Shown here piece after piece: positions 3,401 through 60,171 of a stretch of DNA of 64,000 nucleotides. The notes below the pieces were generated by a model. That model saw nothing but the letters and a program-made list of their open reading frames with translations, was not told the DNA's origin and made no database searches. The stretch's first letter is position 1, and each line of letters begins with the position of its first letter. The translations under genes and the position numbers were made by a program. This stretch comes from a virus (lineage: Duplodnaviria > Heunggongvirae > Uroviricota > Caudoviricetes). The stretch is taken from IMG/VR virus record IMGVR_UViG_2778261571_000004; one strand, written 5' to 3'.

Positions 3401-3775
3401 TTACCACCAGGCGCAAAACGTCAGTCTGTTATTGTGAAAGTCGTGGTTCTTAATCAGGTCTTCCACAAGCTCTTTCAACTCCCCCACATCATGCCAGTAA
3501 CCTTCATCGTACTCCTGACTGCCGAAGAAAAAACCTTCCCGGGTAGGCAAGTACTCTTCGCAATTACTTTCGTTTATGTGCATCAAATGAGCCTTCAGAA
3601 AACAAATGTCATTCATCGTTAATTCTAAAAGCTCACAATTTTCGACTTCACCTACGTTGCGCTCCATCCACCCAACGAGCGCATTGAACTTACGGAAGTA
3701 AGCAACCCGCTTTCTGGATGCCTCATTATTCAGATCGTTTTTTGGCTGCGTCTCGATGTAGATATCAAGTCCCAT
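3401..3775 (-). CDS. hypothetical protein (start moved to Met15 of track ORF 3401..3817)
   Basis: AAGGAAA SD precedes Met15; the track start is a GTG without SD. Confidence 0.45.
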   Translation of the reverse strand: MGLDIYIETQPKNDLNNEASRKRVAYFRKFNALVGWMERNVGEVENCELLELTMNDICFLKAHLMHINESNCEEYLPTREGFFFGSQEYDEGYWHDVGELKELVEDLIKNHDFHNNRLTFCAWW

Positions 3776-3858
3776 GATGGTTTCCTTATTAAGTTGCTTC
3801 AGTGAAATCATTTTCACAAATCAGATAAGGCAGAAAACAAATTGTTATCGGGCATAAT

Positions 3859-3883
3859 AAAATGGCGCGGTTTGCGCGCCATT
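3859..3883 (-). terminator. hairpin terminator (aaatggcgcg..cgcgccattt) after gene 3893..4288, approximate
   Basis: 10-bp GC-rich stem followed by T-rich run in minus sense. Confidence 0.5.
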
Positions 3884-3892
3884 TAAAGAGGA

Positions 3893-4288
3893 TTAAGCGA
3901 ATACGCTTTCAGGGATTAAGGTGTCGGCAGGAATGCCAGAGGTAATGCGCAGACCGTACTGGCCAATCCAGGTGGTGCTGGTGTTCAGGCTGGAGGCGAA
4001 TACGGTGTTAACCATATTCATCATGGTTTCAAACACCTCTTCATCAACCTGGCGGAAGTAGTTCTCGATTTTCAGCAGCAGCGGGTCAGTTGCATCGAGA
4101 ATGGACTGGTATTGAGTCGCGTACTCGCCGTCGGAGTCATCACCTTTACGCACGATCGTACTGGCCTGTACTTCGGCGCCAGTTTCGGTGTTGTACGTAA
4201 CAACGGTGATTTTTGCCACATTCTTACCTTCGGCGGTTTCAGAGGCATAGTAAACATCAACTGTCAGTTTTTCGCGTTTAATGGTCAT
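3893..4288 (-). CDS. hypothetical protein (start at Met23 of track ORF 3893..4354)
   Basis: GGAGAG SD before Met23; motif-2 palindrome and an upstream-gene terminator precede it. Confidence 0.5.
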   Translation of the reverse strand: MTIKREKLTVDVYYASETAEGKNVAKITVVTYNTETGAEVQASTIVRKGDDSDGEYATQYQSILDATDPLLLKIENYFRQVDEEVFETMMNMVNTVFASSLNTSTTWIGQYGLRITSGIPADTLIPESVFA

Positions 4289-4325
4289 TTCACTCTCCGT
4301 AGTGTATTGGTTATTTTTATATTCT

Positions 4326-4344
4326 ATGATCGTAAGTATGTACT
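4326..4344 (-). promoter_or_regulatory. motif-2 palindrome (GTAAGTA-tg-TACTTAC), approximate
   Basis: Inverted repeat between a terminator and the SD of gene 3893..4288. Confidence 0.4.
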
Positions 4345-4414
4345 TACAATACAAAAAAGCCCCGTAAGGATGGCGGGGCTGTCGTACGGTCGACTAATTA
4401 CCACTTGCACATTA

Positions 4415-7876: not shown

Positions 7877-9910
7877 TTACTTAACCTGGTGGCCAGGTTT
7901 AGCACCGACATCCGGGCTTAACAGGAAGATATCTTTCCCGCCAGGGCCAGCAGCCATCACCATGCCTTCGGAGATACCGAAGCGCATTTTACGCGGAGCC
8001 AGGTTAGCCACCATAATGGTGTGACGACCAATCAGTGCCTGTGGGTCTGGATAAGCAGAACGGATGCCTGAGAAGACATTGCGTTTTTCACCGCCGAGAT
8101 CCAGTGTCAGACGCAGCAGCTTGTCAGAACCTTCAACAAACTCTGCGTTTTCGATCAGCGCCACGCGCAGGTCAACTTTGGCGAAGTCGTCAAAGGTGAT
8201 GGTTTCCTGAATCGGGTCGTCAGCCAGTGGGCCAGTTACCGGTGCGGCTGTGGCTTTCACTTCTTCTTTGGATGCTTCCACCAGTGCTTCCACCTGTTTC
8301 ATATCGATACGGTTATACAGTGCCTTGAACGGATTCACTTTATGGCCCAGCAGCGGTTGCTGGATACCATCCCAGGTCAGTTCTGTATTCAGGAATGCTT
8401 CTGCACGTTCAGTCAGTTTCGGCAGTACCGGCTTCAGGTACGTCATCAGCACGCGGAACAGGTTAATGCCCATAGAGCAAATCGCCTGCAGATCGGCATC
8501 GCGTCCTTCCTGCTTCGCCACCACCCACGGAGCCTGTTCATCGACATAGCGGTTAGCCAGGTCAGCCAATGCCATGATTTCACGGATAGCTTTACCAAAT
8601 TCGCGGCTTTCCCATGCTTCGCCAATCACTTCAGCGGCATCAGTAAAGGTTTTGTACAGTTGCGGGTCAGCCAGTTCGTTTGCCAGCACGCCGTCAAAAC
8701 GCTTGTTGATAAAGCCTGCATTACGGGAGGCCAGGTTAACCACTTTGTTCACGATATCGGCATTCACGCGCTGAACGAAATCCTCCAGGTTGAGATCGAT
8801 ATCATCAATGCGCGAAGAGAGTTTCGCAGTGTAGTAGTAACGCAGGCTGTCAGCGTCAAAATGATTCAGCCAGGTGCTGGCTTTAATAAAGGTGCCGCGA
8901 GACTTGGACATCTTCGCGCCGTTCACCGTCACATAGCCATGAACAAACAGGTTGGTCGGCTTGCGGAAGTTGCTGCCTTCCAGCATGGCAGGCCAGAACA
9001 GGCTGTGGAAGTAAACGATATCTTTACCGATGAAGTGGTACAGCTCGGCGGTGGAGTCTTTCTTCCAGTATTCATCGAAGCTGGTGGTATCGCCGCGCTT
9101 GTCGCACAGATTCTTGAAGGAACCCATGTAGCCAATCGGCGCGTCCAGCCAGACGTAGAAATATTTGCCCGGCGCGTCCGGAATTTCAAAACCGAAGTAA
9201 GGCGCATCGCGGGAGATATCCCACTGTTGCAGGCCAGATTCAAACCACTCCTGCATTTTGTTTGCCACCTGCTCCTGCAACGCGCCGCTGCGGGTCCATG
9301 CCTGCAACATTTCGCTGAAAGAAGGCAGATCAAAGAAGAAGTGTTCGGAATCACGCATTACCGGGGTAGCGCCAGAAACCACCGATTTCGGCTCGATCAA
9401 TTCAGTCGGGCTATATGTTGCGCCGCAGACTTCACAGTTATCGCCGTATTGATCTGGCGCTTTACATTTCGGGCAGGTGCCTTTTACAAAACGATCCGGC
9501 AGGAACATGCCTTTTTCCGGGTCGTACAACTGAGAGATAGTGCGGTTTTTAATAAAACCGTTCTCTTTCAGGCGAGTATAGATAAGCTCAGACAACTGAC
9601 GGTTCTCTTCGCTGTGCGTCGAGTGATAGTTGTCATAGCTGATGTTAAAGCCTGCGAAATCAGTCTGGTGTTCCTGACTCATTTCGCCAATCATCTGTTC
9701 CGGTGTGATACCAAGCTGCTGTGCTTTCAGCATGATCGGCGTACCGTGGGCATCGTCGGCACAGATGAAATTAACCTCGTGGCCGCGCATTCGCTGGTAA
9801 CGAACCCAGACATCAGCCTGGATGTGCTCCAGCATATGGCCGAGGTGGATTGAGCCGTTAGCGTACGGCAGCGCGCACGTCACCAGAATTTTCTTCGCGA
9901 CTTGGGTCAT
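7877..9910 (-). CDS. metG: methionine--tRNA ligase
   Basis: 677-aa product from Met44 of the track ORF; near-identical over its length to enterobacterial MetG as I recall it (HLGH and KMSKS class-I motifs, CPKC..CEVCG zinc knuckles). Confidence 0.95.
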
Positions 9911-10067
9911 AGTAGGCATTACTTCTTTGTAGTGAAAAGGGGCTTGATAGTAACAAAATGGCCTTATGTCTGCCATGTGATAACAGCATTTCTCATAAAT
10001 GATTAAATGTCGTAGCTGGAGTACACTACAAGGCGACAATTGCGCAAATTAAAATAAAGGAGACGGG

Positions 10068-11168
10068 ATGAGCGAGTCCAAATCGCCGGATGCCCTGAGA
10101 GCAATGGTAGCCGGTACGCTGGCTAATTTTCAGCACCCAACCCTGAAACACAACCTGACTACGCTTAAAGCGTTACACCATGTTGCGTTGATGGATGACA
10201 CACTGCATGTCGAACTAATCATGCCTTTCGTGTGGAATAAGCCTTTTGAAGACCTGAAAGAGCAATGTAGTGGTGATCTGCTCCGTATCACTGGCGCAAA
10301 GGCTATCGACTGGAAGCTGTCGTACAACATTGCCACGCTTAAGCGCGTCAAAAACCAACCAGGCATTAATGGCGTTAAGAACATTATCGCCGTCAGCTCA
10401 GGCAAGGGCGGTGTAGGCAAATCGTCCACAGCAGTAAACTTGGCACTGGCGTTGGCTGCTGAAGGTGCGAAAGTTGGTATTTTGGATGCCGATATCTACG
10501 GTCCATCAATTCCAACCATGCTGGGTGCGGAAAACCAACGTCCAACCTCACCGGACGGCACTCACATGGCACCTATCATGTCTCATGGCCTGGCAACCAA
10601 CTCAATTGGTTATCTGGTCACTGACGACAACGCGATGGTGTGGCGTGGCCCGATGGCGAGCAAGGCGTTGATGCAAATGTTGCAAGAAACCTTATGGCCG
10701 GATCTGGATTATCTGGTGCTCGACATGCCGCCAGGCACCGGTGACATTCAATTGACACTGGCGCAAAACATTCCTGTAACTGGTGCGGTTGTGGTAACTA
10801 CGCCGCAAGACATCGCGCTGATCGATGCGAAGAAAGGCATTGTGATGTTCGAAAAAGTCGAAGTGCCGGTACTAGGTATCGTCGAAAACATGAGTGTGCA
10901 TATTTGCAGTAACTGCGGTCATCACGAGCCAATTTTTGGCACCGGTGGCGCACAGAAACTGGCCGAGAAATACAACACGCAGTTGTTAGGCCAAATGCCA
11001 CTTCATATCTCTCTTCGTGAAGATCTGGATAACGGAACACCAACCGTTATTAGTCGTCCAGATAGCGAATTTACGGCTATTTATCGTGACCTCGCAGATC
11101 GCGTTGCTGCCCAAATGTATTGGCAAGGTGAAGTAATACCTGGCGAAATCGCATTCCGCGCAGTGTGA
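10068..11168 (+). CDS. apbC: Fe-S cluster carrier ATPase ApbC/Mrp
   Basis: P-loop SSGKGGVGKS, ParA/Mrp family, CxxC near C-terminal half; divergent from metG as in enterobacterial chromosomes. Confidence 0.9.
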   Translation: MSESKSPDALRAMVAGTLANFQHPTLKHNLTTLKALHHVALMDDTLHVELIMPFVWNKPFEDLKEQCSGDLLRITGAKAIDWKLSYNIATLKRVKNQPGINGVKNIIAVSSGKGGVGKSSTAVNLALALAAEGAKVGILDADIYGPSIPTMLGAENQRPTSPDGTHMAPIMSHGLATNSIGYLVTDDNAMVWRGPMASKALMQMLQETLWPDLDYLVLDMPPGTGDIQLTLAQNIPVTGAVVVTTPQDIALIDAKKGIVMFEKVEVPVLGIVENMSVHICSNCGHHEPIFGTGGAQKLAEKYNTQLLGQMPLHISLREDLDNGTPTVISRPDSEFTAIYRDLADRVAAQMYWQGEVIPGEIAFRAV

Positions 11169-11205
11169 TAAAAAGGCGGTGCAATGCACCGCCTAATCAG
11201 CTCTC

Positions 11206-11595
11206 CTACATCACGGGACAATCATCAAACTCGCCACTTCTTGCGTCGTTGATAATGTGAGTGATCACACCAAACACGGCATTGCTGCCCGTGCATCCAT
11301 CGTCATCCTTTGGCAATGCTTCCTTCTTACCGGTTCTTAAATCCTCCAGATGCTGACGTGGGTACTTCCGGTATCTTTTTACGCGATATTCCCCATCCAG
11401 AGCGCATACAAGCAGAGAACCATCAACCGGGGTAAGTGAGGAATCGACCACCAGCAATGCACCCTGTAATATTCCCTCACGATGATGACTATCAGCTGCC
11501 CTCATGAAGTAGGTCGCTGAAGGATGTCTAATTATCTGCTGATCAAGAGAAATACGGCTCTCAGCATAATCCGCCGCAGGAGAAGGGAAGCCCAT
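11206..11595 (-). CDS. UmuD'-like S24 peptidase-family protein that begins at the UmuD autocleavage site (no N-terminal arm)
   Basis: Starts M-GFPSPAADY, matching UmuD from Gly25 onward; Ser (ADSHH) and Lys (VKRYRK) of the S24 dyad are present; an in-frame stop lies 4 codons upstream of the ATG. Confidence 0.7.
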   Translation of the reverse strand: MGFPSPAADYAESRISLDQQIIRHPSATYFMRAADSHHREGILQGALLVVDSSLTPVDGSLLVCALDGEYRVKRYRKYPRQHLEDLRTGKKEALPKDDDGCTGSNAVFGVITHIINDARSGEFDDCPVM

Positions 11596-11613
11596 AGCGT
11601 TTTCACCTCAGAA

Positions 11614-11633
11614 TACTGTTTATCCATACAGTA
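11614..11633 (-). promoter_or_regulatory. LexA (SOS) box TACTGTATGGATAAACAGTA upstream of the UmuD'-like gene, approximate
   Basis: Perfect CTGT-N8-ACAG about 20 nt 5' of the GAGGTGA SD. Confidence 0.65.
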
Positions 11634-11759
11634 TACATTAAAGATGCTTGAAGTGTGCAATAGCGCGATGCTTTGCGCTCGCCTGGTGGTGCGTTATTTT
11701 TTGGCTATATCTTCTTTCTGATATACCGGATCGTTTCCTTTTGGCAGCAGGAGGCTTAA

Positions 11760-11957
11760 CTACCGGTAGTGCCGTAGCCGTTCCATGAAATAGGTGCGCA
11801 GGTTCTCAGGTTGCTCACGGGCTACCTGTTCCGCTATGACGGGTATGTTCAATCGCTCTTTGTAGGCAACCCCCCTGGCAGCCAGGTCAACGTTAACTTT
11901 ATTCCTTTCTTCCTGGCTTTTAGCTGCTATGTTCCATTCGTTCATATTAAATCCCAT
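11760..11957 (-). CDS. small hypothetical protein (65 aa)
   Basis: ORF only; no family recognised. Confidence 0.3.
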
Positions 11958-12413
11958 CCAGAATAATTGAATAACGGCTATTATTTAGTCGCCGCAATAT
12001 CTTCAAAGTTTTTTTTCTCACCCCATTGCTTTTTGCGCACAGCTTATCTGGCTTGCGGTGCGCGAAATGTAAATTCGCCTTCAGAGTTATCCACAAAGTT
12101 ATGCACTTGCAACGGGGCCATTTTCCTCATACCGTGTTTGCACACACAGGAAATGGATATTTTATTAATTGAATTTTATTAAATAATAATGATAAGGAGA
12201 AAATTTGAGATGTAATCATGACATTAATAGATAGGGCCTGCATTACAGGCCCCAACTACATCAAGGAATTCACAGTTCCCTGATTTTTATACCGAAAACA
12301 TGTGCCGTAAGTTCACGTTAACGACTTTCTTTCACCGAATCCAACTATATAGAGGTTGGGTTTCTACGTCAACGTGAGAGCACGCAGCTTTACATTAGAC
12401 GAGGATTACCCTG

Positions 12414-12551
12414 ATGATTGTATTTTTTCAGTTTCTAAGTGCATTTTTAAATGCGCCTGTTCTTAGCCAAGTGCTGGCGATTGTCTTCATCGTGGTTCTG
12501 ATATGGTTTTTCAAGTCAGTGATAAACAGAGGCGTGCGCTGGCTTATTTAA
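12414..12551 (+). CDS. candidate small hydrophobic membrane peptide (about 45 aa), approximate
   Basis: ATG with GAGGA SD about 8 nt upstream; product MIVFFQFLSAFLNAPVLSQVLAIVFIVVLIWFFKSVINRGVRWLI; not in ORF track (<60 aa). Confidence 0.3.
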   Translation: MIVFFQFLSAFLNAPVLSQVLAIVFIVVLIWFFKSVINRGVRWLI

Positions 12552-13083
12552 TGTCGCGATGAGATATTAATTCCCTTGCTGTTTAACCATTTTTTGTGTG
12601 TGCTGGTGAGCGTGTGAAGGCTCAATTTGTTGCCCACCAGTATTTACTATTTCTAAGCTCCACAGTGTCACTTCCGCACAAACAACTTAGCGCGGAATCA
12701 GTATTCGGCCCAAGATGTAAAAAGCCAACCTGCGTTATGGTTCGCATTTCCAAATAGTGTTCTGAACGCCCTTGCCGGGCGCGAGATGTAGATTAGCGTT
12801 CACGCTATGCTGATATACGGCTTTAGACTTTCCATATTGCTGACAGGCTTTATCTGCGGTTTTTTGCAGGCTATCCAGCCCATACCAGCCATCAGACTGG
12901 ATGCTTACCTTTTCACCGTCATTGTATTGCACCATCGCGCACCCAAACATGGCTATCATCGCACCGACAATACCACTTTTCCAAAAAGCTCTAATTAGGT
13001 CATTCGTTACCTAATGTCCGAACTGCTAAAGCATCCAAGTTGCTGTAGAATCACCGCCAATTACATAAGCCTGAAATAAGTGG

Positions 13084-14642
13084 ATGAAAATGACAAGTAT
13101 TCAACAACGTGCAGAGCTTCATCGTCAAATCTGGCAAATTGCTAACGATGTCAGGGGTTCGGTCGATGGATGGGATTTTAAGCAATACGTTCTGGGCGCA
13201 CTTTTCTACCGTTTTATCAGCGAAAATTTTTCCAGTTATATTGAAGCCGGTGATGACAGTATCTGTTATGCGAAACTGGATGACAGCGTAATTACTGATG
13301 ACATTAAAGACGATGCCATCAAAACTAAAGGCTACTTCATCTACCCCAGTCAGCTTTTCTGCAACGTAGCTGCGAAAGCAAATACTAATGACAGACTGAA
13401 TGCAGATTTAAACAGCATCTTCGTTGCTATCGAAAGTTCTGCTTACGGTTATCCTTCAGAAGCAGACATCAAAGGTTTGTTTGCTGATTTCGATACCACC
13501 AGTAACCGCCTGGGTAACACCGTTAAAGATAAAAATGCCCGCCTGGCTGCGGTTCTGAAAGGGGTTGAAGGGTTAAAACTTGGTGACTTCAACGAACATC
13601 AGATTGACCTGTTCGGTGATGCCTATGAGTTCCTGATTTCTAACTATGCGGCAAATGCCGGTAAGTCAGGCGGTGAGTTCTTTACACCGCAGCACGTCTC
13701 CAGGCTGATTGCACAACTGGCAATGCATGGCCAGACCCACGTTAACAAAATCTACGACCCGGCAGCGGGTTCCGGCTCACTGTTGTTGCAGGCGAAAAAA
13801 CAGTTTGATAACCACATCATCGAAGAAGGCTTTTTCGGTCAGGAAATCAACCATACGACCTATAACCTGGCGCGTATGAACATGTTTTTGCACAATATCA
13901 ACTACGACAAGTTTGATATCAAGCTGGGTAATACACTGACTGAGCCGCACTTCAGAGATGAAAAACCGTTTGACGCCATCGTATCTAACCCACCGTATTC
14001 GGTGAAATGGATTGGCAGCGATGACCCGACGCTGATTAACGATGAGCGTTTTGCCCCGGCTGGCGTTCTGGCCCCCAAATCCAAAGCTGACTTTGCGTTT
14101 GTATTACATGCACTGAACTATCTTTCTGCCAAAGGTCGTGCTGCGATTGTCTGCTTCCCGGGTATTTTTTACCGTGGCGGCGCGGAGCAGAAAATCCGTC
14201 AGTATCTGGTCGATAATAACTATGTCGAAACCGTGATTTCACTGGCACCGAACCTGTTCTTTGGCACCACCATTGCAGTAAACATTCTGGTGCTGTCTAA
14301 ACATAAAACGGATACCAACGTTCAGTTTATTGACGCCAGCGAACTGTTCAAAAAAGAGACTAACAACAATATCCTGACCGATGCCCATATCGAACAGATT
14401 ATGCAGGTATTTGCCAGCAAGGAAGATGTTGCTCATCTGGCGAAATCTGTCACGTTTGAGACCGTTGTCGCGAATGACTATAACCTGTCGGTAAGCAGCT
14501 ATGTGGAAGCGAAAGATACTCGCGAAATTATCGATATCGCTGAGTTGAATGCAGAACTGAAAACCACGGTCAGCAAAATCGACCAGTTGCGTAAAGATAT
14601 TGATGCGATTGTGGCTGAAATTGAAGGCTGCGAGGTGCAGAA

Positions 14643-14646
<4 letters not shown>
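13084..14646 (+). CDS. hsdM: Type I restriction-modification methyltransferase subunit HsdM (Type IC, EcoR124-family)
   Basis: 520 aa; NPPY catalytic motif (NPPYSVKW), AdoMet motif [10 protein letters not shown]; matches my recollection of EcoR124 HsdM. Confidence 0.9.
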
Positions 14647-15890
<1,244 letters not shown>

Positions 15891-16011
15891 TTGACCATTG
15901 CTACCGACCGGGCCACCTTAACACCCGGTCTGTATATAGACTATTTTTTACGCGCCGGAAGTCACTCTTAACGCCCTTCCGGCCCTTGCCAGGCGGCACA
16001 AAGGATGCGCT

Positions 16012-19000
16012 ATGACTCATCAAACACACACCATTGCTGAATCCAATAACTTTATCGTCCTTGATAAGTACATCAAAGCTGAGCAAACAAGCGACAGCTA
16101 CCAGAGCGAATCGGACCTGGAACGTGAACTGATTCAGGACCTGCGGAATCAGGGTTATGAATTTATTTCCGTAAAATCACAGTCGGCAATGCTGTCCAAT
16201 GTTCGGGAACAGCTTCAGAGCCTCAATGGTGTGATGTTTAATGACAGCGAGTGGCGGCGCTTCACGGAGCAGTATCTGGACAATCCCAGCGATGGTATTC
16301 TGGATAAGACCCGTAAAATCCATATCGACTATATCTGCGACTTTATTTTTGACGACGGGCGTCTTGAGAACATCTATCTGATCGATAAAAAGAATCTCAT
16401 GCGCAACAAAGTGCAGATTATCCAGCAGTTTGAACAGGCAGGTTCTCATGCTAACCGTTATGACGTCACGATCCTGGTTAATGGCTTGCCTCTGGTGCAA
16501 ATCGAACTGAAAAAGCGCGGCGTGGCGATTCGTGAGGCTTTCAACCAGATACATCGTTACAGTAAAGAGAGTTTTAACAGCGAAAACTCCCTGTTTAAGT
16601 ATCTGCAACTGTTTGTCATTTCTAACGGCACCGATACCCGTTATTTTGCCAACACAACAAAGCGCGATAAAAACAGTTTTGATTTCACCATGAACTGGGC
16701 GAAATCAGACAACACGCTGATTAAAGACCTCAAAGACTTTACCGCTACCTTTTTCCAGAAACATACTCTGCTGAATGTTCTGGTGAACTACAGCGTGTTT
16801 GACAGTAGTCAGACGCTACTGGTGATGCGACCGTACCAGATTGCCGCCACCGAGCGCATTCTGTGGAAAATTAAGAGCTCCTTTACAGCGAAGAACTGGT
16901 CAAAACCGGAAAGCGGTGGGTATATCTGGCACACTACCGGTTCTGGTAAAACCCTTACCAGCTTTAAAGCCGCGCGTCTGGCAACAGAGCTGGACTTTAT
17001 TGATAAAGTCTTCTTTGTGGTCGACAGAAAAGACCTCGATTACCAGACCATGAAGGAATATCAGCGTTTTTCGCCAGACAGCGTCAACGGCTCGGAAAAT
17101 ACCGCAGGCCTTAAACGAAATCTGGATAAGGACGATAACAAAATTATCGTCACTACTATTCAGAAACTCAATAACCTGATGAAAGCAGAAAGCGACCTGC
17201 CTGTATATAATCAGCAAGTGGTGTTCATATTTGATGAATGCCACCGCAGCCAGTTTGGAGAAGCGCAGAAAAACCTGAAGAAGAAATTCAAACGCTATTA
17301 TCAGTTTGGTTTTACCGGCACCCCTATTTTCCCGGAAAACGCCTTAGGCTCAGAAACAACCGCCAGCGTATTTGGTCGTGAATTGCATTCGTATGTAATT
17401 ACCGATGCGATTCGTGACGAAAAAGTGCTCAAATTCAAGGTGGACTACAACGATGTGCGGCCACAGTTTAAGTCTTTAGAGACAGAAACTGACGAGAAAA
17501 AACTAAGTGCGGCTGAAAATCAGCAGGCGTTTCTTCATCCCATGCGTATTCAGGAAATCACGCAATATATTCTGAATAATTTCCGCCAGAAAACTCACCG
17601 TACCTTCCCTGGCTCAAAAGGTTTTAATGCTATGTTGGCAGTGAGCAGCGTGGATGCCGCGAAAGCCTATTATGCGACGTTTAAACGGTTACAAGAAGAA
17701 GCCGCTAATAAATCGGCTACCTATAAACCGCTGCGTATTGCGACAATCTTCTCCTTTGCCGCTAATGAAGAACAAAATGCCATTGGTGAAATTTCCGATG
17801 AAACTTTTGATACCAGCGCAATGGACAGCAGTGCTAAAGAGTTTCTGGACGCTGCAATTCGTGAATATAACAGCCATTTTAAAACTAACTTTAGCACCGA
17901 CAGTAACGGTTTTCAGAACTACTATCGTGATTTAGCCCAGCGGGTTAAAAATCAGGATATCGATCTGTTAATTGTCGTTGGGATGTTTTTAACCGGCTTC
18001 GACGCTCCAACATTGAACACGCTATTCGTCGATAAAAACTTGCGTTTTCACGGCCTGATGCAGGCATTTTCCCGCACCAACCGTATTTATGATGCAACTA
18101 AAACCTTCGGTAATATCGTCACTTTCCGGGATCTGGAACGCTCAACCATCGATGCCATAACGCTGTTTGGTGACAAAAACACCAAAAATGTAGTGTTAGA
18201 AAAGAGTTATGCAGAGTATATGGAAGGCTTTACTGATGCTGCTACAGGTGAAGCTAAACGCGGCTTTATGGCAGTAGTTTCAGAACTGGAACAACGGTTC
18301 CCTGACCCTGCCAGTATTGAAAGTGAAAAAGAGAAGAAAGACTTCGTTAAACTGTTTGGCGAATACCTGCGTGCCGAGAACATCCTGCAAAACTATGATG
18401 AATTTGCCACGCTGAAAGCCCTGCAACAAATCGATCTTAGCGATCCTGTTGCGGTAGAAAAATTCAAAGAAGAACATTATGTGGATGATGAAAAGTTCGC
18501 TGAATTGCAAACGATTCGTCTCCCTGCTGAACGCAAGATTCAGGATTATCGTTCTGCCTATAACGATATTCGTGACTGGCAGCGCCGCGAGAAAGAAGCT
18601 GATAAAAAAGAAAAATCAACCACTGACTGGGATGACGTGGTTTTTGAGGTCGATTTGCTGAAGTCTCAGGAAATAAACCTGGATTATATCCTTGGACTGA
18701 TTTTCGAACACAACAGACAAAATAAAGGCAAGGGCGAAATGATCGAAGAGGTCAAACGCTTAATTCGTTCAAGCCTGGGGAACCGGGCGAAAGAGGGCCT
18801 GGTGGTCGATTTTATTCAGCAAACGAACCTGGATGATTTACCAGACAAAGCCAGCATCATTGACGCGTTCTTTACCTTTGCTCAACACGAACAGCTACGT
18901 GAAGCAGAAGCGTTGATTAAAGAAGAAAATCTCAATGAAGAGGCGGCGAAACGCTATATTCGCACGTCTTTAAAACGCGAATACGCCACCGAAAATGGCA

Positions 19001-19128
19001 CAGAATTAAACGAGACATTACCAAAACTTAGTCCGTTAAACCCGCAATATAAAACGAAAAAACAGACGGTTTTCCAGAAAATCGTCACGTTTATTGAAAA
19101 GTTCAAAGGAGTAGGTGGGCAGATATAG
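16012..19128 (+). CDS. hsdR: Type I restriction endonuclease subunit HsdR (Type IC)
   Basis: 1038 aa; SF2 helicase motifs (TGSGKT, DECH) and N-terminal nuclease domain; length matches EcoR124 HsdR as I recall it. Confidence 0.9.
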
Positions 19129-26282: not shown

Positions 26283-26840
26283 TTACACAATTTCAGAGGG
26301 TAATTTAAAAAATCCGTATTTATTACGTGCCTTAAAGAAGCATTGCATCATTAAGTTTGTGTCATATAAGGCACTATGTGCTTTGGCATGATCGTATATA
26401 AAGCCAAGAGAGAAGGCCAATTCTTCAAGGCGAGGACGTTTACCGTCTTCTGTGGCCCACAATCCCGATAACATAGTATCTATAACGGGAACGTCTGGCA
26501 GTCTTACTCCATACCCTGAAAACTCGTGTCTAATAAATGGTATATCAAACGCTTCGCCGTTATGAGCAACCCACGCACTACATGCCTCCATATAAGCGCC
26601 AATTTCGCTGGCATGATTTGACAACAAAGGTTCAGCTGCCAGCTGTTCTAATGAAATGCCATGAACGGCTTGAGCTTTCGGATCTATGTTTCTGCGAGGG
26701 TTAAAACGCATCTCCAGACTATCAATATGTCTCTGTGTCTCCAGTTCATAGCGGGTAATTGCGATTTCAATAATTTTATGACCAGCAAGGAAATCCAGTC
26801 CCGTAGACTCGATATCGATGCCTGCAACAATCGTTGTCAT
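26283..26840 (-). CDS. DEDDh-family 3'-5' exonuclease (DnaQ/ExoX-like)
   Basis: IDIESTG (Exo I), HNGEAFD (Exo II), HSALYD (Exo III) motifs. Confidence 0.7.
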   Translation of the reverse strand: MTTIVAGIDIESTGLDFLAGHKIIEIAITRYELETQRHIDSLEMRFNPRRNIDPKAQAVHGISLEQLAAEPLLSNHASEIGAYMEACSAWVAHNGEAFDIPFIRHEFSGYGVRLPDVPVIDTMLSGLWATEDGKRPRLEELAFSLGFIYDHAKAHSALYDTNLMMQCFFKARNKYGFFKLPSEIV

Positions 26841-27330: not shown

Positions 27331-27975
27331 CTAATGAACGGTTACTCGGCCACAGAACCGGTTTTCTATCTTTTCTACAGCGTTATCTAGCATTCTCATC
27401 ACTGATCTGGCTCTTGCTTCAACCGTGCGATATCGGTTGGAAACGACGAAGGTTTGCAGATCCCCCCTTTGCGGATGCAGGTGAATTTTTGTCAGTTCCC
27501 CGCACATCAACGCATCAATACGAGCGACATACAGACGGTCTAATGATGCTCGTTGTGATCGCAAGTAATCTCGCTCTGAGAGAGCGACTCCCGGGCGTAA
27601 GCCAGCAATGGCGTTAAAGTTTGAAATAGCAGTTTTGTGGCAAAACTTTTCGATATCGAGGGCTAACTCAATACATCGATCTTCATTGGTATGGCCGACC
27701 AAATCCAACGTGTAGGCCATAACATCAGCAGGTGTGCGATCGATAACAAAGCCTTCAACACCACGCGTAAGTAGCTCTATATGCTTTGCTATTTCCATTT
27801 GAATCTGAAGCCGCTCATATAGAGGCATAGACTCACCTACTCGAACACCGAGTCGGCTCATCAAACTTCCGACACCAGCATCCACGTAAGGGATTCCGTA
27901 ATGTTTGTCGATATATTTAGCCAGGGTTGTTTTCCCACTGCCCTGAGCACCAGTGATCCCAATCCGGTAATCCAT
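27331..27975 (-). CDS. P-loop NTPase, probable nucleotide kinase
   Basis: Walker A GAQGSGKTT near N-terminus; TAATG coupling with upstream DHFR gene. Confidence 0.55.
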   Translation of the reverse strand: MDYRIGITGAQGSGKTTLAKYIDKHYGIPYVDAGVGSLMSRLGVRVGESMPLYERLQIQMEIAKHIELLTRGVEGFVIDRTPADVMAYTLDLVGHTNEDRCIELALDIEKFCHKTAISNFNAIAGLRPGVALSERDYLRSQRASLDRLYVARIDALMCGELTKIHLHPQRGDLQTFVVSNRYRTVEARARSVMRMLDNAVEKIENRFCGRVTVH

Positions 27976-28451
27976 TACGACCTTCTGTATACGATCTGCG
28001 AAAAGCCAGGCTCTTCCTCGCTGGCTCGTTGGGTATAAGCTGTTTCAACAGGCACAAAGCCTAAGTTACGCATCATGCTTGCCGGGAAGAATGCATCGGC
28101 GTTTGGTACATCAACGCCGATGTGGGAGAGCCAAATCTCTTCAACATGCGGCATGAATAGCGAGTAAATTTGTTCCCCGCCAATCACCCACACAGGCTCT
28201 GGTAATCGCAACACATCATCCACACCAGCAGGGTAGAATCCATTTGGTACAAAGCCATGAGAGCGCGTCAAAACGAGGTTATGACGCTCTGGAAGAGGGC
28301 GTTTGAGACTTTCCATCGTTTTACGCCCCATAACGACAGTGGCGTTTTTGGTGAGTCTCTTAAATAGCTTCAGATCGGTAGAACAACGCCAGGGCAGTTC
28401 GTTCGCTATGCCGATCTCATAGTTACGGCCAACAGCAGCGATCATCTTCAT
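27975..28451 (-). CDS. dihydrofolate reductase
   Basis: N-terminal IAAVGRNYEIG..LPW, VVMGRKT, PLPERHNLVL, VIGGEQIY motifs typical of DHFR. Confidence 0.85.
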   Translation of the reverse strand: MKMIAAVGRNYEIGIANELPWRCSTDLKLFKRLTKNATVVMGRKTMESLKRPLPERHNLVLTRSHGFVPNGFYPAGVDDVLRLPEPVWVIGGEQIYSLFMPHVEEIWLSHIGVDVPNADAFFPASMMRNLGFVPVETAYTQRASEEEPGFSQIVYRRS

Positions 28452-28862: not shown

Positions 28863-29966
28863 TCACACCGCCACTGGAACCTTGATCCACGGTAGAGGGT
28901 CATAGCCAAGAATTAAAACCTCGTCCCATTTGAAATCATCCAACTCTGACCATTCATGAGGGAAAATAACGACCGGATCTGAATGCTCTGGAGCCTGTCG
29001 TTTCATTAGCTCACACACACCTTCCATGTGGTTGTTGTACAAATGCACGTCAAAGCCAAAATGCACAAATGCACCGGCCATGTGACCCGTAATCTTCGCG
29101 AGAAAATGAGTGAGAATGCCATAGCCAGCAATATTGAATGGCATACCAACAAAAGTGTCTACGCTACGCTGTACGAGGCAGGAGTTGAGGATGCGTTTGG
29201 GGATTCCAAGTTCATCCAGTTCAGCTTCAGTAACACTGCCGTCCATATCCAGATCGTATAGCATCTTGGTGTAGATAGACTCGTAACCGAGGCGACTGTG
29301 TTGAAGACCAATGTCAGTTGCCATCGTTAAACGGGTTTCAAAATCCAGCTCACGACTCCACAAAGAGAAGACAAAGTGGCAAGGTGGCAGTTTCATATCC
29401 TCAAGCTCGCCTACGTTCCATGCGTTAAGCATGATGCGACGATCGGTAGGGTTCGTGCGCAGTGTATCGACAATACGCTGTAGCTGATCGATTTCACGGG
29501 ACAGCACTACGCGATCTTCACTGATACCCAGGTATCCCTCGACTTTGTACCCGCGTTCACGGAAAGTAGCGATCTTGCTCAGATATTCACTATGGCTCAC
29601 GATGCGGGTATCTTCCCATCGACGCCACTGCTTACCGTAAACCGGCCCCAAATCGCCATTCTCATCGGCCCATGCATCCCAAATCTTAACGCCGTTATCC
29701 TTGAGAAATTGGATGTTGCCCGTGCCTTTCAGATACCACTCAAGTTCGACAAGTAGTGGCTTAAGATTTACCGCCTTTCCAGAAATAAGCGGCACAGTCC
29801 CACCAGTAAGCATGTAGTAAGAGGGAACGTAGCAGGTGCTTAAAGTACCAGTGCCTGTGCGATCATCAGCCTGCACGCCGCTTTTAAGCACCGTCTCAAT
29901 AACTTTTGCATACGATGCGTTTGTTACCTGACCGTTCGTATGCTCTCGATTCAAAAGGAGTGACAC
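28863..29966 (-). CDS. thymidylate synthase (ThyA family) with about 45-aa internal insertion
   Basis: DRTGTGT, catalytic PPCH, QRSVD, PFNIA (Asn = dUMP-type) motifs; insert between PCH and QRS blocks. Confidence 0.8.
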   Translation of the reverse strand: MSLLLNREHTNGQVTNASYAKVIETVLKSGVQADDRTGTGTLSTCYVPSYYMLTGGTVPLISGKAVNLKPLLVELEWYLKGTGNIQFLKDNGVKIWDAWADENGDLGPVYGKQWRRWEDTRIVSHSEYLSKIATFRERGYKVEGYLGISEDRVVLSREIDQLQRIVDTLRTNPTDRRIMLNAWNVGELEDMKLPPCHFVFSLWSRELDFETRLTMATDIGLQHSRLGYESIYTKMLYDLDMDGSVTEAELDELGIPKRILNSCLVQRSVDTFVGMPFNIAGYGILTHFLAKITGHMAGAFVHFGFDVHLYNNHMEGVCELMKRQAPEHSDPVVIFPHEWSELDDFKWDEVLILGYDPLPWIKVPVAV

Positions 29967-31083: not shown

Positions 31084-32226
31084 TTACAGGTCTGCAAACT
31101 GGCTTAGAGAAGCCTTATCCACGGTAGAATCGATCTGACCTACCAGATATGTGCTTTGCTCTGCCTCTTGTGGTGCAATTTGCAGTGTGTCGGTTAACAA
31201 CCACTTGTTCATCCAGACCAGCGGATCTGTGGTAACTTCTGGAAATAAAGCCTTCAGGCCAAGACGATTCATAGCCAGATTGGTGCGGTATTTTACATAG
31301 GTCTTCAGAATATCCGCGTTTAAACCAATCATCGAACCGTCTTTGAAGAGATAGTCTGCCCAGTTCATTTCTTGTTCGGCGACTGATTTCATGGTGTCGT
31401 AAATGACGTTTTCTTCATCAGCAGCAATCTCTTTCCACAATAAACCTTCGCGACCGGTACGCATGAAGCGGATCATGCGTTCAGTTCCTTCGCAATGCAG
31501 AGCTTCATCACGGGCAATAAAGCGCATAATTTTGGTGTTACCCTCAAGCAACTTCCGTTCGCCAAAGGCAAACGTACATGCAAAACTTACATAGAAACGG
31601 ATCGCCTCAAGCGCATTAATGGACACCAACGTGCGGAAAAGCTGACGGTGCAAAGGGTATGGCTCCCAGCCATATTCATTTACGTACAGACGTTCAAACT
31701 CTTTCTCACCTAACGACTGGCGCTCGCAGGTCATCCTATAAAGCCTGTCATATTCAGCAGAGATACTGATCGCTCGGTTGATGATTTCTTCATCCGTAAC
31801 AATACCGTCAAAAACAATACTCGGATCGTCCACCATGCCACGAATAATGTGGGTGTAGCTGCGGCTATGGATAGTCTCAGAGAAAGACCATGTTTCAACC
31901 CACGTTTCCAGTTCAGGAATAGAGATAAGCGGCAGCAGCGTTGCATTTGGGCTACGTCCCTGAACTGAATCGAGTAACGTTTGATAACGGAGATTGCTCA
32001 GAAAAATGTGACGTTCGTGGTCCCGCAGCTTCGTGTTGAAGTCGATACGATCGCTCGAAATATCAACTTCTTCCGGCCGCCAGAAGAAAGACAATTGACG
32101 TTCAATCAACTTTTCAAAATCACGGTATTTTTGCTGATCGTAACGTGCCACGTTGACAGATTGTCCGAGGAACATAGGCTCTTTGGTTGCATCATTAGCA
32201 CCCAAACGGAACGTTGAATATGACAT
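31084..32226 (-). CDS. nrdB: ribonucleotide reductase class Ia small subunit
   Basis: Di-iron/tyrosyl-radical family features; adjacent to nrdA. Confidence 0.9.
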
Positions 32227-32254
32227 GTGTTTTTCCTTTTTCTTTTTTGGTGCG

Positions 32255-32277
32255 TTTAAACAAGTTGTTATCTTATG
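32255..32277 (-). promoter_or_regulatory. motif-1 palindrome (TTTAAACAAGTTGTTATCTTA) upstream of nrdB, approximate
   Basis: Recurrent motif; preceded in transcript sense by nrdA terminator hairpin. Confidence 0.45.
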
Positions 32278-32308
32278 TGTTTAAACAAGGCTTACAAATC
32301 AAAGAGAA

Positions 32309-32327
32309 GGTGGGGATATCCCCCACC
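32309..32327 (-). terminator. hairpin terminator after nrdA (ggtgggg..ccccacc + T-rich), approximate
   Basis: Stem-loop then ttctctttgattt in minus sense. Confidence 0.5.
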
Positions 32328-32332
32328 ATATG

Positions 32333-34648
32333 TCAGATTTTGCAGGCTCCGTCGCACTCATCTTCTGGCTCGACGGCTACAGCTTGCGTCAGTGGATTCT
32401 GCGGTTCGTCGTCATCACGCTTTCCTGCCCCATCTCTGGTGTTGTGGTAGTAAAGCGTTTTAACTCCCATCTTGTAGGCGAGAAGCAAATCTGACAGTAG
32501 CGTCATCATTGGGACTTTATCGCCTTCAAAGCGAGAAGGGTCATAGTTGGTATTGGCTGAAATAGCCTGGTCAAAGAACTTCTGGATGATCGCCACCTTT
32601 GTCAGATAGCCGCGGTTGTCCGGCATATCCCACAGGTATTCATACTGTTCCTTCAGTTTTTCAAACTCAGGCACGACCATCTTAACGATGCCGTCCTTAG
32701 AAGATTTCACCGACACCGGGCCACGAGGCGGTTCGATGCCGTTGGTGGAATTAGTGATCTGGCTGGAAGTCTCGCATGGCATTTGTGCCGTCAGTGTGGA
32801 GTTGCGAAGGCCGTATTTTGCAATACGTTCACGCAGTTCTTCCCACGGCATCTTTAACTCAAAGTTGGTTTCGCCACTTTCGTCTAATGAAGAACGGTAA
32901 TGGTCGATCGGCAACTGACCAATTGCGTACTTGGTCTGCTCAAACCAGTCACACTCACCTTTTGCTTCAGCAAGTCGGCAGCTGGCATCAAGAAGGTAAT
33001 ACTGGATAGCTTCGAACGTTTCATGCACCAGTTTATTGCCAGCGGTATCAGAATAACGAACGCCATTCTTTGCCAGGTAATAAGCAAAGTTGGTTACACC
33101 AATTCCCAAGCTACGACGAGCTTTGGCAGGCACTTCGGCTGCCTCCATCGGATAGTCTTGATAATCCAGTAACGAATCCAGTGCAGCAACGGCATAGAAC
33201 GCCACCTCTTTAAGAGACTCCAGTGAACGGATGGCTCCGAGGTTAAAAGCGGATAAAGTGCATAGCGCGATCTCACCGTTCGGGTCGTCGGTAAATGCCA
33301 GTGGACGAGTGGGTAGAGTGATCTCCATGCACAGGTTTGACTGGCGGACAGGTGCAAGAGCAGGAATGAAAGCGCCATGCTCATTAATATGATCGACGTT
33401 CGCAATATAAATTCGGCCCGTGGACGCTCGTTCCTGCATCAGAGATGAGAACAGCTCAATGGCAGGTACTGACTTCTTGCGAATTGAATCATCGGCTTCG
33501 TATTTATGGTACAGCTTTTCAAACAGATCCTGGTCTGTGAAGAAGGCTTCGTACATATCAGGCACATCATGCGGGCTGAACAGAGTGATGTTCTCGCTTC
33601 TGACGAGTCGACGGTACATTAGACGGTTACTCATGACGCCGTAATCAAGATGGCGAACGCGGTTTTCATCAATACCACGGTTATTTTTCACCACCAGCAG
33701 ACTTTCAACTTCAAGATGCCAGATCGGGTAAAACGCTGTTGCTGCGCCACCACGAACACCACCTTGCGAGCAAGATTTAACAGCAGTCTGGAAATGCTTC
33801 AGGAATGGAATAACTCCGGTATGGGTGGCTTCACCATTGCGGATCTCACTGCCCAGCGCACGGATACGGCCAAAACCAATACCAATTCCAGCACGACGTG
33901 AAACGTAGTCGATAATTGCGGCTGAAGCTGCACTAATCCCTTTCAGACTATCGCCAGACTCAATCAGCACACAACTGGAGAACTGACGGGTTGGAGTACG
34001 GACGCCAGCCATGATTGGTGTGGGCAGAGACAGTTTGAACGTACTTGTAACGTCATAGAAACCTTTGACCATCTCCATACGTGTTTTGCCCGCGCAGTCG
34101 TCTTCCCAATTCTGGAACAGACACATGCCCACCAGCATATAGATATGTTGCGGGCCTTCGTGAATCTCACCAGTAACACGGTTTTGAACGAGGTATTTGC
34201 TTTGCAACTGCACCGTAGCTGCATAGCCAAAAAGATCGTCACGTTTCGGCTTAATGTAATTGCCGAGTTCTTCGATCTCTTCAAACGAATAATGTGTCAG
34301 CAAATCCTTGTCATAAACGCCCTTGTTAACGTTCTTGACAATGTGTTGGTAGAAGTTCGGATAGTCGTAACGACCGAAGGCATCTTTGCGGATTTTAAAA
34401 ATGTTCAGGCGGGCAGCCACCTGTGAGTAATTTGGTGCTTCTGGTGAGATCAAATCAGCGGCAGATTTAACCAAAGCCTCATGCAACTGGCTGGTGGTAA
34501 TCCCATCAAAAATGCTGGCCGCAGCTCCCATTGCTACAGCGGATGCGCTTACACCACGAATGCCTTCTACGCCATACATTACGACGCGGTTGTATTTTTC
34601 TTCGGATAACGGCTCTGTTTGGCCGTTACGTTTTACGATGCTTATCAT
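32333..34648 (-). CDS. nrdA: ribonucleotide reductase class Ia large subunit
   Basis: 771 aa; N-terminal ATP-cone-like segment, catalytic Cys/Glu blocks (NLCMEI), C-terminal redox Cys pair. Confidence 0.9.
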   Translation of the reverse strand: MISIVKRNGQTEPLSEEKYNRVVMYGVEGIRGVSASAVAMGAAASIFDGITTSQLHEALVKSAADLISPEAPNYSQVAARLNIFKIRKDAFGRYDYPNFYQHIVKNVNKGVYDKDLLTHYSFEEIEELGNYIKPKRDDLFGYAATVQLQSKYLVQNRVTGEIHEGPQHIYMLVGMCLFQNWEDDCAGKTRMEMVKGFYDVTSTFKLSLPTPIMAGVRTPTRQFSSCVLIESGDSLKGISAASAAIIDYVSRRAGIGIGFGRIRALGSEIRNGEATHTGVIPFLKHFQTAVKSCSQGGVRGGAATAFYPIWHLEVESLLVVKNNRGIDENRVRHLDYGVMSNRLMYRRLVRSENITLFSPHDVPDMYEAFFTDQDLFEKLYHKYEADDSIRKKSVPAIELFSSLMQERASTGRIYIANVDHINEHGAFIPALAPVRQSNLCMEITLPTRPLAFTDDPNGEIALCTLSAFNLGAIRSLESLKEVAFYAVAALDSLLDYQDYPMEAAEVPAKARRSLGIGVTNFAYYLAKNGVRYSDTAGNKLVHETFEAIQYYLLDASCRLAEAKGECDWFEQTKYAIGQLPIDHYRSSLDESGETNFELKMPWEELRERIAKYGLRNSTLTAQMPCETSSQITNSTNGIEPPRGPVSVKSSKDGIVKMVVPEFEKLKEQYEYLWDMPDNRGYLTKVAIIQKFFDQAISANTNYDPSRFEGDKVPMMTLLSDLLLAYKMGVKTLYYHNTRDGAGKRDDDEPQNPLTQAVAVEPEDECDGACKI

Positions 34649-50900: not shown

Positions 50901-53900
50901 TTACTTATTTATTGTCTCCGCGATATCAGCCAGAATGGCCTCCAGTCGCTCTCCTTCTTCCGGTCGGAAGTACAGGATATTCGGGTTAAATCCGTAGAAG
51001 ACGGTTGCATCAAGCTCTGGGAAGTACTCCTTACGACCAATCAGATCTGATGGTTTACTCTTATTGTTAAATAGTGCGGTTGAACGACTACCACACGTCA
51101 AAATGTAGGTCGGACGCACCAGATTGATCTCTTCACGTATAAAGTCGGTGAACTGGCCGATCTCGTCTTTGGTATAGTCTTTCTCTTTGTCCTTAACCTT
51201 CTTACAAACACCCGTGACATAAAGATCGCCCATGCGCAGATCTCCAACTGTCAGTAGTTTTGCCTTAAAGTCGTCGTATCCGTTCTCCATGAAGTAGCCG
51301 GTACGAGCGTCATTGCCGTTCGCATTGTCCAGAATGATCATGATTTTGGGTTTAATACCAATAGTCGGGCGTATCAACTCCTCACCCAAGCCCATTTCAG
51401 CCGCCATACGTGTCATGAGTACGTTGATTTCGGCAGAACGCTTAGGATTCATTTCGAACGGACGTGATGCTTTAACAGCGTCAATGATGAGATTGCCCAT
51501 CAGCTCAGCCTGGTCGCGCAGTCGTTCAGGATCAGTTGCTGGCAGACTGCCTGGCTCAATTGACGCAAAAGCCCCTACTTTATGAAGCGACTCGCGTACA
51601 CGACTGTTACATGCACGCTTCTCGACCGCTTCATCGAATTGTGCCACTGACTCGAATTTGCCACCAACTTTCTCACGCGCACGCATAATTGCCTGACAAC
51701 CATTTTCAGAACAGCCTTTCACAGCAGAGAATGGCGCATACAGTGCCTGACTGCCGTCTTCGAGTGTGCGGATCTCAATTCGGTTAGATGACACATTAAC
51801 GTCTGGTGGCAATACGCGAATGCCATAGGTCAGCGCATCCTTCACCAGCCCCTGATGCTTATCCTCGCCCAGAATGGTGAGCGCAGCTGCGAAGAACTCA
51901 GCAGGGTAGTGCGTCTTTAGCCACATAGACTGATAACTGATTAAAGAATAAGCAACGGAGTGTGATTTATTGAAGGCATATCCACCGAACTTCTCAAAGG
52001 CGTCCCATATTTCTTGGGCTTTTTCCTTACTGAGACCTTCTTGTTCAGAGACGATCTCCACGTAGTCTATGCCGTCACTAATAGCCTCGCTGTAGCTTCT
52101 ACGCTTACCGTCTGAGCAATCCAGTTTTGCGTGTTTGTGAACCTCTACAGTACCTCCATTTTTGAGTGACAGTGTCACCCAGCCTGCTTGTGCTCGTTCT
52201 ACAAAATCGCTGCCGATCGCTTTCATCTTATCCATGTTCTTTTTACCGATAGCGGAACGCAGAGCGTCTGCTTCGGCCATAGAGAACCCGGCAAGTACTC
52301 GGGAACTTTGCATGATTTGTTCCTGATAGAGCAAAACACCATTAGTCTCCCGGGTGACTTCCTCAAGACGCGGATGAATTGAATGTGGAGCCATGAAGCC
52401 TTTGGCCACGGAGACATAGTCGTCCAACATGCCGGATTGGATCGGGCCAGGTCGGAAGAGTGCGGTCGTGGCGACAACGGTTTTAAAGCTCATTGGCTCA
52501 ATGCCACCGCCTAGATCTTTAAGCAGCTTGCGCATGGGGCCGGACTCCAGCTGGAATACGCCCTGTGTATACCCTGCAGCAAAACCATCCAGCACCTTGC
52601 GATCTTCAAGAGAAATGGCATCAAGATTGATATCTTCACCTGTGTTCTCTTTTATGTAGCGTTTTGCACTATCGAGCAAATCGAGAGTTGCCAGGCCAAG
52701 CACGTCCAGCTTAATTAGGCCCATAGCCTCGCAGTAACGCTTATCAAATGCGATACAACGCGCGTCACCACGGCGCTCAACCGGTGTACGTTCTGTCAGA
52801 GGAACACCTGCTACAATCATCCCTGCCGCATGTCTACCAAAGCCACGCATAAGGCTTTGTAACTTGCAGGCTGCATTGAATGCATCAGGATATTTTGTTG
52901 CGTATTTGTCGAGACTTGCCAGTTGTTCGCGCAGCTCTTCCAATGGAAGGCTATCATCCTCGACGTTCTTCAGTTCTTTTGATACCGCCATATCTGCGGA
53001 CTCCACACCATAAATACGAGCGGTGTCACGTAGTGCAGAGGCTGCGCCCAGGTAGGTGAAGTTCGGAATGCCTGCAACGTAATCTTCGCCGTAGCGTTCA
53101 TTCAGATACTCGATCACCTCATGGCGACGTGCCTGGCTGAAGTCCAAGTCCGCATCCGGCAAGTCGAGACGCTCAGGGTTGATGAAACGCTCAAACAGAA
53201 GACCGTGACGGATTGGGTCGACGTTGGTTATGCCTATGCACCACGCCACCAGAGAACCGGCAGAGGAACCACGACCAGGCCCGACAGGAATGCCAGTTTC
53301 ACGGCTGTGATTCATCAGATCGCGTACCATCAGGAAGTAACCACAAAATCCCAGGCGAGTCAGCGTGTTCATTTCGTACTTTAGCCGCTCAACATAAACC
53401 CTGTTCTCAGAAGCAGGTGGTGTGTATCCAAACTCTTTTGTGGTAAGACGTTTACGCAGCCCTGCAACAGCCAGTTTCATCAGCGTTGCAGGTTCGTCGT
53501 CTGCCATCTTGGGCAGTGCTGGTGGCAATTCATGCCAGCGCCATGTGCAGGCATCGATAATGGAGTCCTGCGTTGTTGAGGCCATTGCAGCTGTTACCGG
53601 CACATCCATGCGAACGGAGAAGGCTTTAAGCGCCTCAAGGAGATGGCGACGACCATTGATGGCGTTATCTCGCTGGTGGGGGATACGCAGACGATGCGGC
53701 TGGTCGATTTTTATGTTGTTCGTAACCATGTGCGCAATGTCTTTAATGTCTGCATCGTCGATCGATTCGTAATAAGCGGGATAGAACGCTACTGGCTCTA
53801 TTTTCAGTGCGCTGGCGACTTTCATCGCCCGGACGTTAATCTGGTCGTAGAATGGGGTAGGGTGCGGATAGACCACACTATAGAAGTTGTCTTTTCCACC

Positions 53901-60075: not shown

Positions 60076-60171
60076 ATGACAATCACCGAGTTACGCCGAT
60101 GCACTGTATAAGTAAACAGTATATTAGGCATAGATTCTTATAGGATCAAGAGTAAAAGTAACTCATTTTCA

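Follow-up and report, generated by a model that had tools for sequence, protein, structure and literature searches.

A LexA-boxed humD gene encoding a pre-processed UmuD' homologue without a umuC partner on an SSU5-related phage-plasmid of Escherichia coli

The locus lies in a 64-kb stretch of viral DNA, and the whole of this stretch is called the window below. The humD gene is located on the minus strand between apbC and hot. The features of the region were as follows.

11174..11194, no strand assigned: GC-rich hairpin between humD and apbC (terminator scan; 9-bp stem then a T run)
11206..11595, minus strand: humD coding sequence, 129 aa (open reading frame; NF051876; PF00717; match to 1UMU; likeness to P1 HumD)
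11604..11609, minus strand: Shine-Dalgarno sequence GAGGTG, 8 nt from the ATG and the same in P1 (sequence inspection)
11608..11610, minus strand: in-frame TGA, codon 5 upstream of the humD ATG (sequence inspection)
11614..11633, minus strand: LexA box TACTGTATGGATAAACAGTA, sole perfect match in the window, aligning with the annotated LexA site of P1
11630..11659, minus strand: putative sigma-70-like promoter TGCACA-18-TATACT (consensus scan, 9/12 matches)
11760..11957, minus strand: hot, encoding a Pol III theta-subunit homologue and adjacent to humD on its upstream side (Pfam PF06440, 100.7 bits)
11216..12608, minus strand: DNA homologous to P1, upfM/N/O-hot-humD without lxr (blastn against the P1 locus, 81-86% identity)
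13084..19128: type I restriction-modification operon (hsdM 13084..14646, hsdS 14643..15890, hsdR 16012..19128)

The humD open reading frame extends on the minus strand from an ATG at 11595 to a stop codon at 11206, and its product begins with MGFPSPAADY. The minus-strand leader reads TACTGTATGGATAAACAGTA-TTC-TGA-GGT-GAA-AAC-GCT-ATG. The initial annotation had placed an in-frame stop 4 codons upstream of the start; the TGA is present, although it is the fifth codon, with four sense codons (GGT GAA AAC GCT) between it and the ATG. No upstream in-frame start for humD could be read from the sequence, where the TGA at 11610..11608 closes the frame, and thus no N-terminal arm can be encoded, as had been claimed. 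The perfect LexA box reported earlier was likewise found, at 11633..11614; however, it ends 4 nt before the Shine-Dalgarno sequence and 18 nt before the ATG, and not about 20 nt 5' of the Shine-Dalgarno sequence. The gene apbC had been reported directly downstream on the opposite strand, and it occupies 10068..11168 (+), convergent with humD. The hairpin between these two convergent genes is probably a two-way terminator.

A scan of the 64-kb window for TACTGT-N8-ACAGTA revealed one perfect site, TACTGTATGGATAAACAGTA. Sites with at most one mismatch numbered two against 0.06 expected, a count reached by none of 100 shuffles. The −10 hexamer of the putative humD promoter overlaps the LexA box, and its TTGCA-type −35 is kept in P1 and in a Salmonella P1-like plasmid (L012); one promoter-like site of this kind in 1 kb is by itself not above chance. 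LexA boxes upstream of humD could also be observed in Salmonella, Klebsiella, and Citrobacter relatives (four other lineages). From the box, LexA control of humD in this element may be inferred.

Comparison of the humD product with protein family models revealed a match to the NCBIfam equivalog NF051876, "HumD family translesion DNA polymerase", with 219.8 bits (cutoff 120) over positions 1-129 of 129, and to Pfam PF00717 (Peptidase_S24) with 37.9 bits (cutoff 23.3). The UmuD' catalytic domain was recovered as a homologue among solved structures, with PDB 1UMU at E = 6.7e-23 and with 1I4V and Pol V UmuD (8GMT) also among the best matches; homology to the solved UmuD' structures is evident at the sequence level. 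An AlphaFold2 model of HumD was discarded (mean pLDDT 44.5, pTM 0.35), the underlying alignment of 101 sequences, all at least 67% identical, being too shallow. The protein was 91.5% identical to HumD of P1, 90.7-93% identical to HumD of P7, D6, SJ46, and RCS47, 68% identical to N15 gp26, and 71% identical to phiKO2 gp23; with one protein of Escherichia phage Cyrano, the identity was 100%. A total of 642 PLSDB plasmid records encode proteins with at least 90% identity, and in E. coli plasmids the RefSeq label for this locus is either "HumD family translesion DNA polymerase" or "S24 family peptidase". Judged from these comparisons, the gene belongs to the HumD family as an ordinary member that has a name already, and it is not new.

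Two other identities were rejected. The product could not be regarded as UmuD proper, since the UmuD model NF007621 scored 87 bits, below its cutoff of 110, and neither a cleavable arm nor a umuC operon is present. A LexA/CI-type repressor was also rejected, since the protein consists of the S24 domain alone, without an N-terminal DNA-binding domain, and the lexA model scored 27.2 bits against a cutoff of 110.95. The database name "LexA family transcriptional regulator", given to some HumD relatives, is not justified.

A three-way alignment placed M1-G2 of the humD product on C24-G25 of E. coli UmuD, Ser36 on Ser60, and Lys73 on Lys97. The start M-GFPSPAADY thus falls on the Cys24/Gly25 cleavage point of UmuD, as the initial annotation had proposed. 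Identity to UmuD was 44% over the whole UmuD' body, beginning at Gly25, with the Ser and Lys columns kept. The E. coli UmuD sequence of this alignment agrees with the PDB alignments.

The family was further surveyed by a protein search covering 5.8 billion sequences, which returned 555 HumD relatives at E <= 1e-10; all family counts given here refer to the best 120 cluster representatives of these 555. Their hosts were Escherichia, Salmonella, Citrobacter, Klebsiella, Enterobacter, Kluyvera, and Trabulsiella. A length of 126-130 aa was observed in 100 of these best 120 representatives, and the initiator Met alone preceded GFPSP in 109 of them. The few longer entries carry unrelated upstream read-through up to a ...M-GFPSP, suggesting that their starts were mis-called. 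A short N-terminus characterizes the HumD family.

This survey also bears on whether the short form could be an artefact or a decaying remnant, namely a 5'-truncated umuD pseudogene or a product of sequencing error, for which the short length alone would speak. A hidden upstream start or sequencing error was looked for, and the in-frame TGA, the M-GFPSP start of 109 of the 120 relatives (best of 555), and the identical sequence of independent assemblies were found instead. The same start is also used in P1, P7, D6, N15, and phiKO2, and the Shine-Dalgarno sequence, LexA box, and in-frame stop are all correctly placed. Comparison with P1 humD gave a dN/dS of 0.05 (dN 0.042, dS 0.80); humD is under strong purifying selection. 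An artefact or pseudogene was excluded on the grounds of the family-wide start, the placed signals, the dN/dS value, and the identical assemblies, and its probability is practically nil.

The Ser-Lys dyad, which had been described as retained, is literally present as Ser36 and Lys73, although its catalytic need is doubtful. In the best 120 of 555 representatives, the column of Ser60 contained Ser in 75, Thr in 43, and Ala in 2, while Lys was found at the column of Lys97 in 117. The GDSM motif around the catalytic Ser reads ADSH in the window protein and is not kept across the family, where the pattern is x-[S/T]-H-[F/Y/H]. Since the Ser column varies in this way, the HumD nucleophile does not seem to be under the strict selection expected of an enzyme. 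Such a relaxed Ser is consistent with a protein that never needs self-cleavage, and the dyad is probably not a catalytic requirement in HumD.

It could still be proposed that HumD is an active S24 protease in trans, with Ser36 and Lys73 cleaving host UmuD or another LexA-like protein after damage. UmuD cleavage can be intermolecular, and the alignment of the two residues with Ser60 and Lys97 of UmuD, together with the Lys kept in 117 of 120 representatives (best of 555), would suit such an activity. The Thr and Ala found in place of Ser and the replacement of GDSM argue against it; because of this variation and the lost motif, selection on HumD catalysis appears relaxed, and a protease acting in trans is considered very improbable.

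Immediately upstream of humD, the hot product matched PDB 1SE7 (HOT) at E = 2.7e-33, covering HOT residues 1-61. A CAG-to-TAG change relative to P1 shortens it to 65 aa instead of 87, and the shortened protein may still be functional. The lxr gene is absent: about 680 nt are missing compared to P1, and at most a 26-nt remnant may persist (window 11596..11759). In P1, lxr is a "LexA regulated function" gene between hot and humD, divergent and sharing the LexA site. The Salmonella P1-like plasmid L012 also has no lxr. A P1-type hot-humD module has evidently been exchanged between unrelated phage-plasmids. Such an exchange agrees with PMC9603915, where this part of P1-like elements is described as a recombination hot spot of high variability.

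The gene order around humD was compared among relatives. The Salmonella P1-like plasmid has the order hot-humD-phd-doc. In Citrobacter chromosomal prophages a divergent dinI is followed by an 80-codon ORF and then by humD, and in Klebsiella N15/phiKO2-like linear phage-plasmids (TelK and SopAB nearby) humD and dinI are divergent around one LexA box. These Citrobacter and Klebsiella dinI-humD pairs, each arranged around a single LexA box, lie at about 3440..4390 in each of the loci L006-L011. An adjacent umuC was found in none of the inspected Citrobacter, Klebsiella, and Salmonella humD loci, and a LexA box lay upstream in every one. On this comparison, the orphan LexA-boxed humD is a recurrent accessory module of temperate enterobacterial phages, paired with a theta homologue or with DinI. 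DinI inhibits RecA-mediated UmuD cleavage, and a phage making both DinI and the pre-cut HumD could swap its own protein for host UmuD'.

Alignment with UmuD further revealed a 10-residue C-terminal extension past the UmuD end, ..INDAR-x-x-EFDDCPV[M/I] (HumD residues 120..129, window 11206..11238). This tail is absent from UmuD and UmuD', and within it EFDDCPV shows at least 90% conservation at every position among the best 120 of 555 HumD representatives.

The neighbours and the tail raise the question of whether the main role of HumD is that of a damage-induced modulator acting on replication or RecA and not that of a polymerase subunit. The protein would bind Pol III subunits or RecA filaments, slowing or redirecting replication or damping recombination, possibly together with Hot and the DnaE of the element. 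Consistent with this, hot adjoins humD here, in P1, and in Salmonella P1-like plasmids; the element has its own dnaE and 3'-5' exonuclease; other phages pair humD divergently with dinI, which encodes a RecA-filament modulator, around one shared LexA box; and the conserved tail suggests an extra partner. Binding of umuD gene products to Pol III subunits is reported in the title of Silva 2012. The published data on P1 HumD, in contrast, show UmuD'-type complementation, and the two roles are not mutually exclusive; a mainly modulatory role is considered rather unlikely.

A further, speculative proposal concerns the tail itself, ..R-x-x-EFDDCPV[M/I], which might be a docking peptide for a non-UmuC partner (binders of the SSB tip, or the replicase DnaE, exonuclease, or Hot of the element), so that HumD would serve phages as a specific adaptor in replication stress and not simply stand in for UmuD'. 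The HumD tail bears a loose resemblance to DFDDDIPF, the acidic tip of SSB in E. coli. In the 1999 study of P1 HumD, good complementation was reportedly seen only from a high-copy plasmid, and native expression is said to have been poor. A docking peptide would be compatible with the degenerate Ser motif, with the constant pairing with hot or dinI, and with this reportedly weak low-copy complementation, none of which demonstrates it; the proposal is regarded as unlikely. As P1 HumD is reportedly weak natively, the natural role of HumD may not be bulk mutagenesis.

The carrier of the gene was identified by genome comparison. The 64-kb window proved collinear with pAPSLC-111K, a circular E. coli plasmid of 111.6 kb, the identity being 96-99%. 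Among the genes of this plasmid are those for a siphovirus head and tail, terminase, and portal along with repA and partition genes; it further encodes dnaE, primase, helicase, ligase, nrdAB, thymidylate synthase, dfrA51, and four tRNAs. Within the window, a stretch of 22 kb was 98.7% identical to phage Cyrano and 76.5% identical to Salmonella phage SSU5 over 70% of its length. The element is recognizable from these matches as an SSU5-related phage-plasmid of E. coli, and it probably belongs to the E. coli "pSLy3" group of the phage-plasmid classification summarised in PMC11652158. SSU5 itself was not among the 60 best phage records encoding a HumD relative. A chromosomal island beside apbC was rejected, since the whole window is collinear with the circular 111.6-kb phage-plasmid. 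A P1-like element, suggested by the 91.5% HumD identity, was also rejected, since P1 homology is confined to 11216..12608.

The initial annotation had stated that no umuC partner accompanies the gene. This was borne out, as the neighbours are hot and apbC and no Y-family polymerase was found in the window or in the collinear plasmid. When the window was searched by tblastn, UmuC and DinB of E. coli as queries gave a best E of 0.45, and no Y-family polymerase occurs among the 120 annotated features of pAPSLC-111K. The segment 40325..42162 is the sole part of the window that lacks a counterpart in pAPSLC-111K yet is long enough for a polymerase gene, and it holds repA.

Several other features of the element could be noted. 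The genes metG (7877..9910, minus strand) and apbC (10068..11168, plus strand) form a divergent pair at 7877..11168 with about 90% DNA identity to the E. coli chromosomal pair; the plasmid pair is a second copy of metG-apbC. In 5426 complete E. coli genomes, 223 plasmid locations were found to carry the metG-apbC pair, and a literature search on SSU5-type elements and metG found no paper linking the two. That the humD gene was already named, that its locus is of the SSU5 phage-plasmid type, and that apbC and metG are plasmid-borne goes beyond the initial annotation.

A second LexA-type box, TACTGTTTACTTATACAGTG (60102..60121, minus strand), overlaps a TAATAT −10-like hexamer and lies 26 nt upstream of a tyrosine recombinase ORF of 367 aa (58972..60075, minus strand), which suggests that the recombinase is also SOS-controlled. 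In the restriction-modification operon, hsdS contains a perfect 12-bp tandem repeat of 3.5 copies (15207..15248) encoding TAEL three times. In EcoR124-type enzymes, the copy number of such hsdS repeats changes specificity. Within hsdS, the segment 14738..15114 lacks a counterpart in the plasmid, which is collinear elsewhere, and the hsdS specificity domain has therefore probably been swapped. Genes for a Pol III alpha subunit (dnaE, 1168 aa; 50901..54407), a 3'-5' exonuclease (26283..26840), and the theta homologue (11760..11957) are also present on the element, and their products could form a Pol III-like core of its own. A nucleotide-metabolism block on the minus strand (27975..28451, 28863..29966, and 31084..34648) comprises dihydrofolate reductase, thymidylate synthase, nrdB, and nrdA; its dihydrofolate reductase is trimethoprim-resistant and annotated dfrA51 in the collinear plasmid. 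An ORF of 779 aa (43759..46098, minus strand) is annotated as a LAGLIDADG family homing endonuclease in the collinear plasmid, and its size suggests an intein-containing or fused protein.

Comparison with P1 revealed close likeness: 129 aa, the M-GFPSP start, hot upstream, no umuC, the tail EFDDCPV[M/I], and a LexA box 18-19 nt before the ATG. The 11 substitutions relative to P1 HumD are all conservative or fall within the variable 85-105 stretch, and the LexA box differs from that of P1 at three central positions while both CTGT/ACAG arms are kept. Unlike P1, the carrier is an SSU5-related siphovirus phage-plasmid, lxr is absent, and hot has a premature stop; the homology stops at the humD stop codon, with apbC-metG downstream in place of phd-doc.

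According to its note in the P1 GenBank record, HumD "functionally complements E. coli UmuD'"; the record also marks a site for LexA binding 20 nt ahead of the gene. McLenigan et al. 1999 (PMID 10559166), as cited in PMC7092418, described P1 HumD as a pre-activated UmuD' homologue that has no umuC partner and complements UmuD'. Published work on the P1 protein further includes the formation of dimers and binding both to UmuC and to RecA filaments (PMC7092418; P1 GenBank record). In PMC4713147, humD appears as an RT-qPCR gene not under C1 control, in a text that gives no value for damage induction.

Compared to E. coli UmuD' (1UMU, 1I4V), the window protein is 44% identical from the residue after the cleavage site, with the Ser and Lys columns kept, and E. 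coli umuD is a LexA-controlled gene, as, judging from its box, the humD of the window appears to be. Unlike UmuD', the window protein is made directly and not by cleavage, has no umuC operon, and carries a degenerate GDSM motif, a 4-residue insertion, and the 10-residue C-terminal extension. N15 gp26, phiKO2 gp23, and the UmuD-like proteins of lambdoid/P22-like phages (HK140, HK639, BTP1) belong to the same family with 60-71% identity; their genes are also orphans with a LexA box on temperate phages, but their partner is a divergent dinI and not hot. MucA, ImpA, and RumA of conjugative plasmids and ICEs are likewise UmuD homologues of mobile elements under SOS control, at most about 48% identical. 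According to PMC7092418, these are full length, with a cleavable arm, and each is followed by a polymerase gene of its own (mucB, impB, or rumB).

Taken with this background, humD is likely a temperate-phage accessory gene, here carried by an SSU5-related phage-plasmid, that gives ready UmuD' to host Pol V. In the undamaged cell, host LexA would occupy the box overlapping the humD −10 and keep the gene off. DNA damage would lead to LexA cleavage and humD transcription. The armless product would have from the outset the form into which host UmuD is converted only slowly, by RecA-stimulated self-cleavage, and the HumD dimer would associate with UmuC of the host and with RecA filaments, serving as accessory subunit in a Pol V-like translesion polymerase. 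The post-translational checkpoint would thereby be skipped, and damaged DNA of the element and of the host would be copied at the cost of mutations. Complementation of UmuD', dimerization, and the binding of UmuC and of RecA filaments are carried over by analogy from the 91.5%-identical P1 protein, and a P1-like activity of HumD in this element may be expected by the same analogy. The initial proposal of an SOS-controlled, pre-processed UmuD' acting on host Pol V matches the published description of P1 HumD, to whose family the window protein belongs over its full length. A surrogate for UmuD' nevertheless leaves the near-invariant 10-residue tail unexplained.

The humD gene, its LexA control, and the UmuD'-like activity of its product were already published in 1999, and the exact protein is already named in RefSeq. 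The logic of HumD was recovered here by a reader without tools from the sequence alone, which adds little beyond what was known. The gains are modest: the hot-humD module in an unrelated SSU5-type phage-plasmid, the Ser column that is not strictly kept, and the conserved tail. These offer small leads for research on translesion synthesis and on phage-plasmids.
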